Source of the DNA: Candidatus Nealsonbacteria bacterium
Lineage (GTDB): Bacteria > Patescibacteriota > Minisyncoccia > Minisyncoccales > CAZKCU01
Reading direction: 5' to 3'
NCBI GenBank assembly: GCA_047456305.1
Contig: CP179888.1
Span: forward strand, 116,421-180,420
Length of the DNA stretch: 64,000 nt
Positions 53,264 through 60,277 of the stretch are shown here, in pieces (the first letter of the stretch is position 1; every line of letters begins with the position of its first letter). Below the pieces are notes generated by a model. That model was given only the letters and a program-made list of their open reading frames with translations. It was not told the DNA's origin and did no database searches. The position numbers and the translations under genes are program-made.

Positions 53264-56200
53264 TCAAAGTGTCGAATCGCTACCAGCTCCTTGGGTAGTT
53301 CCGCCACCAGTATCTCCAGTATCTCCGGTGTCTCCTGTATCTCCTGTATCTCCTGTATCTCCTGTATCTCCTGTATCTCCTGTATCTCCTGTGTCTCCTG
53401 TGTCTCCTGTGTCTCCTGTGTCTCCTGTGTCACCTGTATCACCTGTATCATCTGTATCATCTGTATCATCTGTATCTCCTGTATCTCCTGTATCTCCTGT
53501 GTCTCCTGTATCTCCGGTGTCTCCGGTGTCACCTGTATCACCTATGTCACCACCATCTCCTATGTCGCCAGTATCTCCTGTGTCTCCTGAGCCATCATTG
53601 TCTCCGCTATCCCCGACCGCCGTATCTCCTGTATCACCGGTGTCTCCTGTATCACCAGCACCTCCTGTATCCCCGGTATCACCGCCAGTATCACCGGTAT
53701 TATCAGATATAGATATCGAATCTCCGCATTCCCCTTTGACTTTAACCCACTCTCCATTTTCAATCCAGCTACACCAGATTTCGCCAGTAGCCTGGTCAAC
53801 CATTTCTAACTTTTCAGTTCTAACTTTCTCAGCGAAAAGTTGTTTAACTTTAGTAATACCGTTTTCAATAAATAATCCTAATTTCTCCAAGCTGTTTTTT
53901 ATTGCTAAGGTAAATTGATCTAAAATAGTTGGTTGCTCCTCGCTCCCTGTTAATTGTTCATTGTTCATTGTTTCATTGTTCGTTGAAGCGAGCGAGCCTT
54001 CTCCTGTAAGTGAGCCCAGAGACCAGTGAGGATTGACAAAAAGCAGTATCCTACCAATCTCTTCCCTATCATCATATGGTTCTAAAGCTAAGCCAATAAC
54101 TCGACCGGCTTTGGTTGCCTTCATCCCTACCCCTGGAATCTCTGACGAAGTAATCAGATCCCCAGGTTTTATTGGCCCGTTTATGGCAGAAACCTTTACA
54201 GGAGCACGACCGGTTAAGGACACAGGATTAGGATTTTGGGCATAATCAATAATACTTTTTCCAAATGTTTCATAAGGAGAAGTGGAGATGATTCCAAGGA
54301 TATTTGGTTGATAAGGTTTATCCGTTTTAGCCAATACAGAGACAGCGAGCTTCTCTTTTTCGTTTAAAACTTCACCGGTTCTAGCATTGACAGCTGGAGA
54401 TTCATAGATTATAGTCTCGCCAGTAATGGCAACAATGTCACCACTCTCTCCATCTTTAATATCATACCACTCGGCAATATCTCCTGGTGCAGCAGAGCAG
54501 GCAACAATATAGCGGTCAGTAAAGGTAGTATCAGAATCAGCTCCTGAGTGACAAAGCCCGTTGGTAGTAGCTGTATTAGTGGCATCTAATTCAACATCCG
54601 TATTGACATCAAAGAGCCAGGATTGGACCTTGGCCACATTTGTCCCTCCAGCATAAAGAATAGTATAATAATCGTAGACATACATACCGGAAAACCAGCC
54701 GTCTTCCCTCGGGGACTTAATGTCATAGGTGAATCCGTAGTAGGAGCCATAAGACCCACTGACATTGATTCCTGCGAAACCGCTGCTGCCGGACTTGTAC
54801 TGACCTATGAGGGCGTTATTGCCTTCTCGAAGTCCGAGCACAAGAACGCTCTTGTAAGGAGTTGGATCCCCAACGTCCAGAAACGTGCCGGCAGCAGCTA
54901 TATCATTAGATATAAGTGCGTAGGGCGCCGTTCCGATCGACTCGATGCCACCGGAGACTCTGATCTTACCATTGACATCTAGTTCTGCCGCGGGGGCCGT
55001 CGTCCCGATGCCAACGTTGCCAGCATTGAAAATAACATCGCCATCTGACTGAATAGTTAGAGCGTTGTTAGTGCCAGTTCCTGATTCAATTACAAGAACA
55101 TCTTGGGAGTTAGCAACGTCTCTGAGCGTAAATTCTCCCGTTTGCTCTGAGAGTTCGCCCATGAAATGATAACTAGGCGTTTTGAATGCAAGTGCTGCTA
55201 TTCCATCGGTAGCATCGCCCGTCTCTATCTTCAACTCAGAGTTTTCCGAGGCATCATACAGATCGAGGAGACTGTCTGGACTCGTTGTCCCGATACCGAA
55301 GTAATTGGTGCCATCTCCGGCGAAAATCACAGTATCCATCGATGTTGAGGTCGAGCGATAATTAACCGCAATTCTGTCCAAAAACGGTGAAAGGCCAAGG
55401 CTTCCAGAGTCGGCGATGAACTGAATCCTGTAATAAAAGTTAGTCTCGGACCAACCCAACCCAGATAGATCAACGGCATGGGAACCTTGAGTTAAGGTAT
55501 CCCACCCACTCAGAGCGCCGCCAGAATCGTACCAGTCAGTATTATCTTGGCTATACTGGGCTTTCAAGGAGGTTCCCGAGTGCATTAAAGAAGAGTAGTA
55601 ACTAAAGGAATTTATCTTCTGAACATTCTGGCCCAATAAGAGGTTGATTGAGGTTAGAGTCCCAGAGGAGCAGCAATAAATCGTGTATGTGGCTAATGTT
55701 TTGGTACTGTCGGCTAACGTTTTGGTACTGTCGGCTAATGTTTTGGTACTGTCGGCTAATGTTTGGGTGCTGTCGGCTAACGTTTGGGCGCTGTCAGCTA
55801 ATGTTAGACTACTGTCTTGGAAAGTAAATCCTCCGATAAGGTTAGTTCGATAAGTCCCAGATGGTAAACTTATATCAGTTTTAACAATCAAACCATCAGC
55901 CTCCCCCTGTCCTTCTGAATAGGTCTCGCCGACAGCATAAACGTAACTGCCATCGGCATAGACAGAGGAGAACTTATCAGTACTCCCTCCACCATAGATC
56001 TTTCTGGCAACAATAGAAAGATCTGAGAGGTTGAATTTAACGACCAGAGCATCATAGATTCCCTCTCCTTCTGAATAGGTCTCGCCGACAGCATAAACGT
56101 AACTGCCATCGGCATAGACAGAGTTGAACCTATCAGTACTCCCTCCACCATAGGTCTTTCTGGCAACAATAGAAAGATCTAAGAGGTTGAATTTAACGAC

Positions 56201-59200: not shown

Positions 59201-60277
59201 CTCTTTAACTGGTAGACCTTCTTCTTTTAATGCTTGAAGCTCTTTCTGGAGTTTTTCTAATTCGTCTTTTCTAACAAATTCTTCTTCTGGTTTTTCTATT
59301 ACAATTTCTTTTTTAAAGAGTTTAGTAATGGCTTGAGGAATTTTTCTTATTCCTTGAGTAAAACTTTTAAATCCATTGAGAACGGTTCTTGATGCATTGT
59401 CGAGTTTCTCTTCAATAAAGTAATTAAAAGCTAAATATCCAGATTTGAGAGTTTGCGATATCCACTGGCCAAATTCTTTGAAAGTATTGAGAGTTGATTT
59501 TAAAACATCTGGAGAACTTATGGCTGCTAATTCTTGACCAGGTTTTAATATTTTTTGAGCTATTGTTGAAAAAGTATTATCAATGGTTCCAGAGACATTG
59601 ATAAAACTATGAGGGACATCAGAAATGGTTTCAGATAAGAGTTTTGCTGTCTTCTCAACAATAACATCTCCAGCTTGGCCTATTATATATGTATAGGAAG
59701 AAAGGTCTTGCCCGAACTTTGAACTTTGAACTCTAAACTCTGAACTTAAATTAGCCATTCCCCTATCAAACCCTTGGTTGAATTCTTGGACTAAGAATGG
59801 TAATTTCTCTGAGGAAGTTTCATAAACATTTTTGAAACTCTGCACAGAATCCAAAACCAGTCTATTTCCGGCCTGGCTGATTTCTTTGACATATGGGTCT
59901 AAATTGTTAAATACACTTTTGAAACTTTCTTTGCCAAAAACTGTCCCAGCTATTAGTAGAACAAAAATCAGGGCTAAAGAAAAAGCAAATCTAATTTTGG
60001 GCACTGCTTGTTGAGATGTTATCCTGACGGAAAGTTTTTCTTCAATTGGTAAATTCTCTGGCGGAGGAGCTAGTTTTTTTGCTCTGAAATTATTATTGTA
60101 TTCTTCTATTCTTTCAATATACTCTTTAACCCATTCTTTTTTGGTTACCCAGTTTCTCCCAATTTTCACTGCTTTTAATTTTCCTTGCCTGGCCCGCAAA
60201 CTTAAATATTCCTGTGTGTAAGAACAGTATTCGGTTGCTTCCTGTAAGGATATGTAATTGTTAGATTCTCCTATCAT
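53264..60277 (-). CDS. Giant (2337 aa) membrane-anchored surface protein: N-terminal HTH_17-like segment, TM helix, coiled coil, Gly/Thr-rich fibre repeats ([10 protein letters not shown] motif, seen three times), tandem SBBP-type beta-propeller repeats, TLADSTK heptad repeats, beta-rich C-terminal domain and (GDT)n tail
   Basis: Single uninterrupted ORF. Residues ~8-55 ([46 protein letters not shown]) fit the excisionase/MerR-type HTH_17 pattern. TM at [19 protein letters not shown]. Four tandem ~104-aa repeats (one per ~312 bp; [41 protein letters not shown]) carry the beta-propeller SBBP signature. C-terminal GDTGDT... tail. Confidence 0.8.
53300..53560. repeat. 9-bp tandem microsatellite (tgtatctcc)n, ~30 units, encoding the (GDT)n C-terminal tail of the giant protein
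   Basis: Directly visible near-perfect 9-nt periodicity. ORF-track ORFs 53248..53541(-), 53256..53918(+) and 53291..53590(+) are translation artefacts of this repeat. Confidence 0.9.
55690..55805. repeat. 21-bp tandem repeat (ggctaa[c/t]gttt[t/g]gg[t/c][a/g]ctgtc) x5, encoding TLADST(K/Q) heptads in the giant protein
   Basis: Directly visible. Confidence 0.85.
55880..56780. repeat. ~312-bp tandem repeats (3 to 4 units) inside the giant gene, encoding the SBBP beta-propeller blades
   Basis: Frame-shifted minus-strand ORF-track ORFs at 55888, 56200, 56512 and 56791 recur with ~312-bp spacing, the first three with near-identical translations. Protein-level repeats ...[24 protein letters not shown]... 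recur. Confidence 0.8.

Follow-up and report, generated by a model that had tools for sequence, protein, structure and literature searches.

Candidate Phyla Radiation bacteria (CPR, or Patescibacteria) make up a large share of bacterial diversity; most have not been cultured, and they are thought to spend their lives attached to other cells. To our knowledge, the anchoring and regulation of their surface structures are essentially unknown. In one CPR episymbiont, Vampirococcus lugosii, very large predicted membrane proteins have been proposed to form a fibrous surface that mediates attachment to the host (PMC8080830). The MAT (mosaic adhesive trimeric) fibres of the predator Bdellovibrio bacteriovorus are trimers that resemble phage tail fibres and serve as adhesins. 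Their cell-proximal N-terminal part is invariant and their tips can be exchanged, with S74 and non-S74 subfamilies; they also carry a signal peptide, and their N-terminal domain is believed to attach to an element of the surface (PMC10769870). Here we describe a giant gene of a very small, probably symbiotic bacterium, in a stretch of 64,000 nucleotides of the Candidatus Nealsonbacteria contig CP179888.1 (the window). Its product begins with a helix-turn-helix (HTH) domain, continues with one transmembrane (TM) helix and extends into a very long fibre. We propose, with a probability of roughly one half, that the N-terminal module is a shared, probably DNA-binding cytoplasmic anchor and autoregulator for variable surface fibres, and not a dedicated ToxR-like sensor of host contact.

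The N-terminal module and the family it defines

The gene is a single uninterrupted open reading frame (ORF) of 2337 codons with an ATG start. It lies on the minus strand, which the first-pass annotation, made by a model from the sequence alone, had left unstated. Its parts are as follows, with the basis of each in brackets.

53264..60277, minus strand: whole ORF, 2337 aa, with HTH, linker, TM helix, helical stalk, chimeric fibre and collagen-like tail (translation)
60110..60256, minus strand: residues 8–56, divergent excisionase/MerR-type winged HTH, HTH_17 (profiles, AlphaFold2, Foldseek)
59990..60109, minus strand: residues 57–96, last part of helix a3 and a cytoplasmic linker predicted to be disordered, with the motif PPxNLP(I) at P71–I78 (AlphaFold2, family alignment)
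59933..59989, minus strand: residues 97–115, single TM helix with a Kyte-Doolittle peak of 2.47, followed by the motif FGKESFK; predicted orientation N-in (hydropathy, flank charges)
58868..59932, minus strand: residues 116–470, predicted extracytoplasmic helical or coiled-coil stalk, conserved in the family over ~116–300 (BLAST, AlphaFold2)
56804..58801, minus strand: residues 493–1158, Gly/Thr/Ala/Ser-rich fibre region with five GNVGIGT(T/D)xP module-boundary motifs (sequence reading)
55905..56620, minus strand: 156-nt tandem repeat, 4.6 copies at 88% identity, giving five YGG-initiated 52-aa units at residues ~1220–1480 (TRF)
55691..55805, minus strand: 21-nt tandem repeat, 5.5 copies, encoding TLADS(T/A)(K/Q) heptads (tandem-repeat scan)
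54992..55297, minus strand: residues 1661–1762, two more GIGT motifs (1661, 1756), matching Bdellovibrio MAT beta-helix modules (phmmer)
53708..54580, minus strand: C-terminal module, residues ~1900–2190, common to ~40–48 other family proteins (BLAST)
53310..53680, minus strand: (GDT)n Gly-X-Y collagen-like tail, 9-nt unit, 41.6 copies, ~42 triplets (tandem-repeat scan)

The first-pass annotation had read residues ~8–55 as an excisionase-family HTH, and this holds for residues 8–56 on several lines of evidence. Pfam HTH_17 (PF12728) matched with 19.5 bits (E=1.2e-3) in the first 130 residues and with 21.9 bits (E=2.2e-4) in the first 64, against a gathering threshold of 27, and the match spans profile positions 1–49 of 51. 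The NCBIfam model TIGR01764 'excise' was matched over its full length (1–49/49) with 21.7 bits (E=1.9e-4; cut-off 28.8), and excisionase families of the PHROGs collection at E~1e-3. Because these single-sequence scores lie below the thresholds, family-level evidence was sought, and HTH_17 was found at E<=0.01 in 31 of 50 diverse HTH copies from relatives with no other family recurring; several relatives also have a precomputed PF12728 annotation.

AlphaFold2, run on an alignment of 85 sequences, predicted the arrangement b1(8–10)-a1(11–17)-a2(22–31)-b2(37–39)-b3(42–46)-a3(47–68) with a confidence (pLDDT) of 97–98, then a disordered stretch and a long helix from residue 94. When this model was compared with the PDB by Foldseek, the matches of best probability were Pukovnik Xis (from a mycobacteriophage), the excisionase RdfS, TraN, BldC, RacA bound to DNA and Tn916 Xis, at a target TM-score of 0.6–0.7 and a root-mean-square deviation (rmsd) of 1.7–2.4 A; the E-values are only 0.03–0.4 because the domain is short. 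Among the predicted viral structures of BFVD, every named match in the top 50 is a DNA binder of HTH, excisionase, AlpA or PrtN type (E down to 2.9e-4, TM-score up to 0.82, rmsd 1.0–1.3 A). A sequence search of the PDB with the N-terminal 130 residues returned no HTH relatives, just chance matches (ankyrin, endoglucanase), and an HTH-only family profile found no HTH among PDB sequences either, from which we conclude that the subfamily is divergent. A profile from a longer N-terminal alignment matched designed helical bundles alone, which we dismissed as low-complexity noise. Residues 8–56 are thus best treated as a divergent branch of the excisionase/MerR-like superfamily, with a predicted fold that agrees with this placement and with sequence scores short of the curated thresholds.

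Conservation over 385 HTH copies is very uneven along the domain, with a peak in helix a2 and the wing, and with parts of a1 and the end of a3 varying. L11, L25, K38, W43 and W49 are invariant, Y24, L27, R28 (98%), R30 (98%), K33 (97%), L34 and Y53 are conserved at 97% or above, and R41 and G40 at about 95–96%; a lysine or arginine is kept at positions 28, 30, 33, 35, 38 and 41 (R28, R30, K33, K35, K38 and R41 here) in at least 96% of the family. The wing motif K-x-x-K-x-G-[KR]-x-W is present in 313 of the copies, and the domain is basic (median pI 9.46, net charge +4.2). Given this basic and extremely conserved recognition helix and wing, the sequences suggest that the HTH binds something specific, most likely DNA.

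The sole hydrophobic segment above threshold covers residues ~91–119. A single TM helix had been placed at ~100–118; its existence stands, but the peak is at 97–115. Within 15 residues on each side, the charges are +3/0 before the helix and +2/-2 after it. The same asymmetry is seen in 274 relatives, where the N-terminal flank has a net charge of +1.77 and the C-terminal flank -0.11 (Wilcoxon p=5e-27), the former being more positive in 211, equal in 29 and less positive in 34. From the positive-inside rule, and since no signal peptide precedes the 96-residue folded basic domain, an N-in (type II) orientation with a cytoplasmic HTH appears to be the only reasonable reading, in agreement with the cytoplasmic N-terminus claimed from the first pass. 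The PPxNLP motif of the linker and FGKE after the TM helix are conserved across the family, as are Gly residues within and just past the helix (G..FGKE).

To define the family we used the first 130 residues in an exhaustive phmmer search of 1.84 billion cluster representatives (50% identity). At E<=1e-3 this retrieved 2067 representatives, of which 889 also pass E<=1e-10 and 113 pass E<=1e-30; their lengths lie between 126 and 6890 aa, and many exceed 1500 aa. The same query also recovers hundreds of relatives at 40–75% identity. The joining of HTH, TM helix and giant ectodomain, which the first-pass annotation had suggested looking for in other CPR genomes, does recur. In a sample of 322 proteins the HTH is present once in 257, twice in 63 and three times in two, and exactly one TM helix follows the last HTH in 249 (median linker 39 aa), while in all 81 genomic loci the HTH lies at the extreme N-terminus of the ORF. 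These proteins apparently form a large family, so far undescribed, in CPR bacteria of the Parcubacteria/Paceibacteria type. Its defining part is the N-terminus, made up of one to three HTHs, a linker of ~25–65 aa, a TM helix and a helical juxtamembrane stalk. Full-text literature searches returned no description of an HTH-anchored CPR fibre family, although subscription papers may mention one. Tandem HTHs (two or three) occur in ~20% of the proteins, for example P0005, P0015, P0259 and P0263.

What follows the N-terminus is another matter. When 511 family sequences were aligned to the giant by BLAST, 429 covered residues 1–50, 132 covered 251–300 and six covered 451–500; later segments are common to subsets only, at residues ~900–1150 (~25 proteins) and ~1900–2190. 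Only the first ~300 residues are conserved and the rest is variable. Ectodomains of relatives range from ~30 to >6000 aa with unrelated content, including LVIVD repeats, right-handed beta-helix/NosD, Peptidase_S74, MopE-like, FG-GAP/VCBS, LamG, collagen, intein and polysaccharide-deacetylase domains, and the names given by NCBI range from 'hypothetical protein' to 'MerR family DNA-binding transcriptional regulator'. Paralogues in one genome or locus have HTHs that are 44–80% identical and ectodomains that differ. An HTH that is nearly invariant among paralogues and species with unrelated ectodomains implies one common cytoplasmic partner and not a sensor-specific regulon.

About half of the family ORFs in public metagenome-assembled genomes (MAGs) end at a contig edge inside the gene (loci L001–L080); repeat-rich giant fibres break assemblies, and the number and size of these proteins are therefore underestimated. 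Several family contigs are filed under implausible taxa, among them Saccharibacteria placeholder names, Gammaproteobacteria, Pirellulales, Bathyarchaeota and Lokiarchaeia.

In the 2337-aa protein itself, the membrane is followed by a helical, charged stalk up to residue ~470. The first-pass annotation had called a coiled coil here, and AlphaFold2 (residues 1–340) does predict an all-helical juxtamembrane ectodomain, but with low confidence (pLDDT 40–73). The Gly/Thr-rich fibre with a tail-fibre-like motif that had been noticed was confirmed by composition and by seven G(N)VGIGTxxP motifs over the whole ectodomain. The region around residue 1756 matched solved MAT fibres in phmmer searches, namely 8OND (Bd2133) at E=1.1e-6 and 8OML, 8ON4 and 8OL4 at E=1e-3 to 3e-3, the aligned partner stretch being GNVGIGATAPTAKLEVAG. 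By contrast, the SBBP beta-propeller blades proposed for this protein were not recovered: the SBBP profile gave no match to the five 52-aa repeats at a cut-off of E=10, where the HMMER filters drop most matches above ~0.1, and these repeats showed weak Kelch- or propeller-like matches alone (Kelch_6, E 0.019; Kelch_4, 0.037; DUF5122, 0.25). Nor is the extreme C-terminus the beta-rich module that had been expected, as it consists of the (GDT)~42 Gly-X-Y repeat. Pfam Collagen (PF01391) scores 23.4 bits on this tail against a gathering threshold of 27.2, X and Y being Asp and Thr with no Pro, and matches to a tail-fibre PHROG and to an NCBIfam Scl-adhesin model also fall on this low-complexity stretch. 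The module before it (residues ~1900–2190) had no Pfam or PDB match and is possibly a fibre tip of the non-S74 kind; Pfam scans did not find Peptidase_S74 (PF13884) in the protein.

By its sequence, then, the ectodomain is a chimeric fibre of ~1850 aa, built of modules delimited by GNVGIGTxxP, as are the Bdellovibrio MAT fibres and phage tail fibres. By analogy with those fibres and with the giant membrane proteins of Vampirococcus, we infer that it is exposed at the surface and adhesive, and it is probably trimeric.

Promoter, genomic position and neighbouring genes

The first-pass annotation had suggested a search for a conserved DNA motif near the gene, and such a motif was found at the promoters of the family. 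In the window it comprises the following elements.

60536..60593, minus strand: conserved promoter module of the family (k-mer counts, alignment)
60585-60593, minus strand: TAGCCGATA, one mismatch to TATCCGATA (motif scan)
60574-60582, minus strand: DnaA-box-like TTATCCACA, the only exact copy in the 64-kb window
60559-60564, minus strand: -35 element TTGACA (motif reading)
60536-60541, minus strand: -10 element GAAAAT (motif reading)

The outlying k-mers in the 200 nt upstream of family genes were TTATCCACA and TATCCGATA/TATCGGATA. At 42 of 80 loci, against an expected 2.1, an exact TTATCCACA is present no more than 400 nt upstream of the gene and on its strand, and 45 of the 64 copies counted on both strands of ~1 Mb are upstream of family genes. 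Likewise, 54 of 106 sites of the form TATC[CG]GATA fall within the 3.3% of sequence upstream of these genes. The aligned element reads tATCCGATA g/c, TTATCCACA g, N9, cTTGACA, N17, GA(A/T)AAT and A.A.TAAT. When the -35 and -10 elements alone were used as the anchor (65 of 81 promoters), the 9-mer found 8–10 nt upstream of the -35 was TTATCCACA in 30 promoters, TTTTCCACA in eight and TTATTCACA in five, and 45 of the 65 fit TTWTNCACA. The element accompanies family genes with or without ftsW upstream; on this sequence evidence, the family gene is equipped with a sigma-70-type promoter of its own. The distance from the -35 to the ATG is 34–37 nt in eight loci, implying leaderless mRNAs.

We take TTATCCACA to be the consensus DnaA box and TTWTNCACA its relaxed form. 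The simplest reading is that a DnaA site abuts the promoter, since the variants fall exactly at positions that DnaA tolerates. We know of no assignment for the TATCnGATA palindrome. Clusters of exact copies are seen beside the box, with centres from -70 to -51, across the spacer and the -10, and again from +10 to +29.

Several other interpretations of this region were discarded. An origin of replication at the box is ruled out by the single exact box in 64 kb, the lack of a GC-skew switch at 60.5 kb and the fixed 9-nt spacing to the -35. The 258-nt leader has no Rfam family and folds no better than shuffled sequences (z=-1.6), and a structured 5' UTR or riboswitch was rejected. The composite 16-mer CCGATASTTATCCACA does not serve as a marker of the family: it is found mostly in unrelated, often high-GC metagenome contigs, and a family HTH follows in 10 of 120 cases. 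Exact TATCSGATA sites are on average more numerous upstream of two-HTH genes than of one-HTH genes (1.09 against 0.61), but a sample of 11 loci is too small for a correlation with HTH copy number.

The leader and other promoters yielded some further observations. An inverted near-DnaA box, TGTGGACAA (that is, TTGTCCACA), lies just downstream of the predicted -10 at 60516-60524 on the minus strand, and an inverted repeat of 9–10 bp, GAAGGCTCC ... GGAGCCTTC, lies at 60352-60433 (minus) in the ~250-nt leader. The arrangement TTATCCACA-N8-9-TTGACA also occurs at non-family promoters (L073 ~9629(-), L028 ~16886(-), L076 ~9275(-), L016 ~2761(+) and L054 ~9054(+)), two of which share TATACT as their -10. 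Neither tRNAs nor Rfam RNAs were found directly downstream of these promoters, which may belong to the same regulon.

The position of the gene is conserved as well. We scanned species-representative genomes with the peptide pattern of the family HTH and confirmed 280 sites, retaining 80 loci from them. A homologue of FtsW/RodA lies directly upstream on the same strand in 48 of the 69 loci where the upstream sequence is 1.5 kb or longer, usually with a gap of 40–400 bp, and these homologues are 46–78% identical to that of the window. LigA precedes FtsW/RodA in 43 of 80 loci and a further 135-aa gene lies upstream in 26. The window shows the identical order of ligA, ftsW/rodA (a gene of the shape, elongation, division and sporulation family, SEDS) and the family gene:

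60606..61694, minus strand: FtsW/RodA (SEDS) gene directly upstream of the giant (Pfam and synteny)
61715..63829, minus strand: NAD-dependent DNA ligase LigA, next in the conserved upstream block (Pfam and synteny)

Downstream genes showed no conservation across related loci. The protein occupying the slot after ligA and ftsW varies from 134 to 2464 aa; six loci have tandem pairs of family genes, and in two MAGs copies are found on different contigs. At some loci (L012, L026, L003, L008 and L016) the gene appears to be split, so that a short ORF with HTH and TM helix is followed, after 0–2 nt or with an overlap, by a large fibre ORF lacking an HTH. In L012 (9989-19340) an 813-aa HTH-TM gene is separated by 2 nt from a 2302-aa fibre ORF, and in L026 (9986-12906) a 121-aa ORF overlaps one of 852 aa. 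These could be real two-gene versions, frameshifts or cases of recoding, and they suggest that the giant arose by fusion or splits easily.

The window has a GC content of 36.9% and looks like ordinary chromosomal DNA of a low-GC bacterium, with no sign of a prophage or island in its gene content. On the minus strand ligA, the SEDS gene and the giant are followed by a gene for an 833-aa TPR protein, after which come rpoB, rpoC, ftsK and recA; ssb, rpsF, ychF, the RNase J gene, uvrA, uvrC, groEL, dnaG, rpoD and a gene for an M48 membrane metalloprotease (20029-20925) are also present in the window. The closest relatives of the ORF and of its neighbours are from Nealsonbacteria, Paceibacterota/Parcubacteria, Torokbacteria and Gribaldobacteria MAGs. 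GC reaches 0.45–0.46 within the giant gene (54000-58000) against ~0.35 around it, which follows from the Gly/Ala/Thr codon content of the fibre region and is therefore no evidence of foreign origin.

The 833-aa protein directly downstream (50731-53232, minus) has several TM segments and C-terminal TPR repeats, with homologues in seven related loci. It gives a weak O-antigen-ligase-like match (Wzy_C, E=0.006, below threshold). Speculatively, a Wzy_C/PglL-type enzyme beside a Ser/Thr/Gly-rich fibre could be its O-glycosyltransferase. A perfect hairpin with a 17-bp stem, GTCCTCCCAAATTTTGCC-AGG-GGCAAAATTTGGGAGGGC, lies at 53110-53146, ~120 nt past the stop codon of the giant and within the first ~40 codons of the TPR gene; it may be the terminator of the giant, and the start of the TPR gene would then lie beyond the one called for the ORF.

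Elsewhere in the window, four GT4 glycosyltransferase genes are clustered at 13999-19331 (+) and a PGA_cap (CapA-like) gene lies at 27727-28797 (+), which may represent further envelope or glycan functions in the region. A gene for a small membrane protein of the Phage_holin_4_2 family (31078-31485, +) adjoins one for an SBP_bac_5 solute-binding protein with an inserted PG_binding_1 domain (31697-33727, +), an unusual combination. Finally, a tRNA-Leu(CAG) at 33745-33830 (+) overlaps the mechanical GTG start of the RNase J ORF at 33751-35532 (+), whose true start is therefore further downstream.

Possible functions of the cytoplasmic domain

In the explanation we favour, the fibre would be displayed at the cell surface for attachment. 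All paralogues would share one nucleic-acid target for their cytoplasmic HTH, most likely in double-stranded DNA, and the best candidates are the orphan TATCnGATA/TATCC repeats at the promoters of the family itself. The module would in this way tie envelope proteins, and possibly their own gene, to the nucleoid and autoregulate them, and the DnaA-type box would couple expression to the replication cycle. We infer DNA binding because the domain is basic, because conservation is highest in the recognition helix and wing, and because nearly all of its structural relatives bind DNA. The first-pass annotation had offered as its second choice that the HTH is simply a cytoplasmic anchoring module. 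This comes closer to the evidence, but the conserved basic helix and wing argue for specific binding.

A number of observations weigh against this explanation. The single-sequence Pfam and NCBIfam scores fall under their curated thresholds, and the HTH-only profile retrieved no HTH from PDB sequences. Folds of the MerR/Xis type can bind proteins too: CbpM-CbpA is among the fold matches of the HTH, and TorI, which has such a fold, binds the protein TorR. TTATCCACA is more simply a DnaA site than a target of the HTH, and exact palindromes number just ~0.6–1.1 per upstream region and are found elsewhere too (52 of 106 sites). Trimerisation rests solely on the similarity to MAT fibres and on the Gly-X-Y tail. 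Adjacency to ftsW could instead mean a role in cell wall or division; it could also be inherited gene order, since conservation is just as strong for ligA and the further upstream gene, and the promoter of the family gene is its own.

A role in wall synthesis leads to the alternative that survives best, one that we consider unlikely. In this case the domain would be a RodZ-like adaptor, its HTH docking without DNA binding on MreB, FtsA, FtsZ or the SEDS FtsW/RodA complex, so that wall synthesis would be positioned or regulated through it and the fibres would come to lie at sites of growth or division. The topology is the same (cytoplasmic HTH, one TM helix, extracytoplasmic part), the gene is directly downstream of ftsW/rodA on the same strand in the 48 of 69 loci given above, and the short orthologues in this slot (134–350 aa), with a helical ectodomain, resemble small bitopic division or elongation factors. 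Perhaps the conserved PPxNLP of the linker is a partner-binding peptide, and the DnaA-type box would fit expression timed by the cell cycle. However, the HTH is HTH_17/MerR-like and not of the XRE-type HTH_25, there is no RodZ_C, and the domain is strongly basic with its conserved residues on the canonical DNA-contact helix and wing. The synteny moreover reaches ligA and another gene without a functional link, the gene has its own promoter, and paralogues away from ftsW have the identical module.

A bolder form of DNA binding, to which we give a rather small chance, is that trimeric host-binding fibres are wired to DNA, the HTHs of a trimer binding head-to-tail at the TATCC/TATCnGATA repeats of their own promoters. 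In one version the gene would be tethered to the membrane, and giant proteins would be transcribed, translated and inserted in place. In another, assembly of the fibre, tension or contact with a host would alter HTH occupancy and transcription, so that one protein would serve as contact sensor in organisms that have very few signalling systems of the conventional kind. In either version, gating by the cell cycle would be added by the DnaA-type box.

More doubtful again is the reading preferred in the first-pass annotation, a ToxR/CadC-like one-component regulator in which engagement of the fibre with a host shifts oligomerisation or conformation across the membrane and alters HTH binding at promoters. 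The topology is right, with a domain of DNA-binding type inside, one TM helix and a large ectodomain outside, and this part of the comparison stands. A conserved candidate operator is found at the family's own promoters, overlapping the spacer, the -10 and the early transcript; the probable trimerisation of the ectodomain would bring HTHs together, and domains of the Xis/BldC type bind repeats cooperatively. However, the DNA-binding domain is not of the OmpR type, no ToxS/VtrC-like partner gene is conserved downstream, and the ectodomain is hypervariable and nearly absent in many orthologues, which is not what is expected of a conserved sensor. With an HTH almost identical across different ectodomains, different inputs cannot give different outputs. 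It is mainly this combination of an optional, hypervariable 'sensor' with an invariant 'output' that weakens the ToxR reading.

The module might also be inert or serve biogenesis alone, as a folded, positively charged cytoplasmic stopper that fixes the N-in orientation and holds secreted fibres of great length, or as an export or sorting tag with no nucleic-acid target. It heads proteins with any ectodomain (126–6890 aa), and its wing motif superficially resembles the KxYKxGKxW signal-peptide motif of large Gram-positive surface proteins. We think this improbable, as thousands of clusters keep ~30 surface and core positions nearly invariant and the HTH is duplicated in tandem, neither of which a stopper would need, and a complete winged-HTH fold is predicted at very high confidence. 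A KxYKxGKxW signal peptide as such was ruled out: K35-x-x-K38-x-G40-R41-x-W43 is the wing of the folded HTH, the Pfam model has no match, and the hydrophobic segment lies ~55 residues past the motif and not ~10–20. Least probable is a proteolytically released regulator of the Notch, SREBP or anti-sigma type, in which shedding of the fibre or tension would lead to intramembrane cleavage and a soluble HTH factor: the single-pass N-in topology with a DNA-binding-type domain in the cytoplasm, the conserved Gly in and after the TM helix (G..FGKE) and the M48 membrane metalloprotease in the window are compatible with it, but at 81 loci neither a gene for a site-2 protease nor a cleavage motif is associated with the family, there is no sign of processing, and the reading is purely topological.

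What was a single odd ORF is now a defined family of at least 2000 clusters with an N-terminal signature, a conserved slot by a SEDS gene and a conserved promoter, and its variable parts are linked to fibres of a predator that have been characterised by experiment, those of the MAT type in Bdellovibrio. Binding of DNA by the HTH would mean a new way to couple adhesins of the cell surface to the chromosome; should the partner be one of the cytoskeleton or divisome instead, the family would be a CPR-specific analogue of RodZ-type adaptors. The signature is also a handle for finding and annotating CPR surface fibres, some of which are now mislabelled 'MerR family transcriptional regulator', and the testable units are small, a 60-residue domain and a 20-bp DNA site.

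Comparison with known systems

The HTH shares its fold and order of elements, a basic recognition helix and wing and the G-K-L...G-R-x-W signature with Xis/RdfS, BldC, AlpA, TorI and the N-terminal domain of RacA. Known members of the excisionase/MerR-like group are small soluble proteins or the N-termini of soluble regulators, whereas this family has one to three of them joined to a TM helix and an extracellular protein. RacA, whose DNA-binding domain is among the fold matches (5i44, TM-score 0.65, rmsd 2.4 A), offers the likeness of a DNA-binding domain held at the membrane. Unlike the family, RacA and Noc are peripheral cytoplasmic proteins without an extracellular part; site arrays of the ram or NBS kind were neither searched for nor found here.

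With ToxR, CadC, TcpP and VtrA the family has the N-in bitopic topology in common. Those regulators have an OmpR/PhoB-type domain (Trans_reg_C) and a compact, conserved periplasmic sensor, and the family has HTH_17 and a hypervariable, optional fibre; Pfam gave no Trans_reg_C match at E<=1 in the 2337-aa protein, where HTH_17 was the only match of DNA-binding type. RodZ, the elongasome component that binds MreB, has the same three-part topology, the family gene usually adjoins a SEDS gene, and the short orthologues are similar to RodZ in size. However, RodZ has an XRE-type HTH_25 and RodZ_C/DUF4115, neither of which was found in Pfam scans of the 2337-aa protein, and giant fibre extensions are unknown in RodZ.

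For the ectodomain the closest comparison is with the MAT fibres. Both these and the giant have beta-helix modules bounded by GNVGIGTxAPxxxL(D/H)V motifs, an invariant N-terminus and a variable C-terminus; S74 chaperone domains occur in MAT fibres and in many relatives of the giant, and a role in recognising other cells is likely for both. The giant differs in that its invariant part is a TM anchor with a cytoplasmic HTH, in lacking S74 and in its collagen-like end. The report on Vampirococcus lugosii describes no N-terminal HTH anchor (PMC8080830), and the family defined here is from Parcubacteria-type lineages. What appears to be new, therefore, is the combination, in which an HTH_17-TM anchor heads a large family of variable and often giant fibres that have their own promoter and a fixed position after a SEDS gene.

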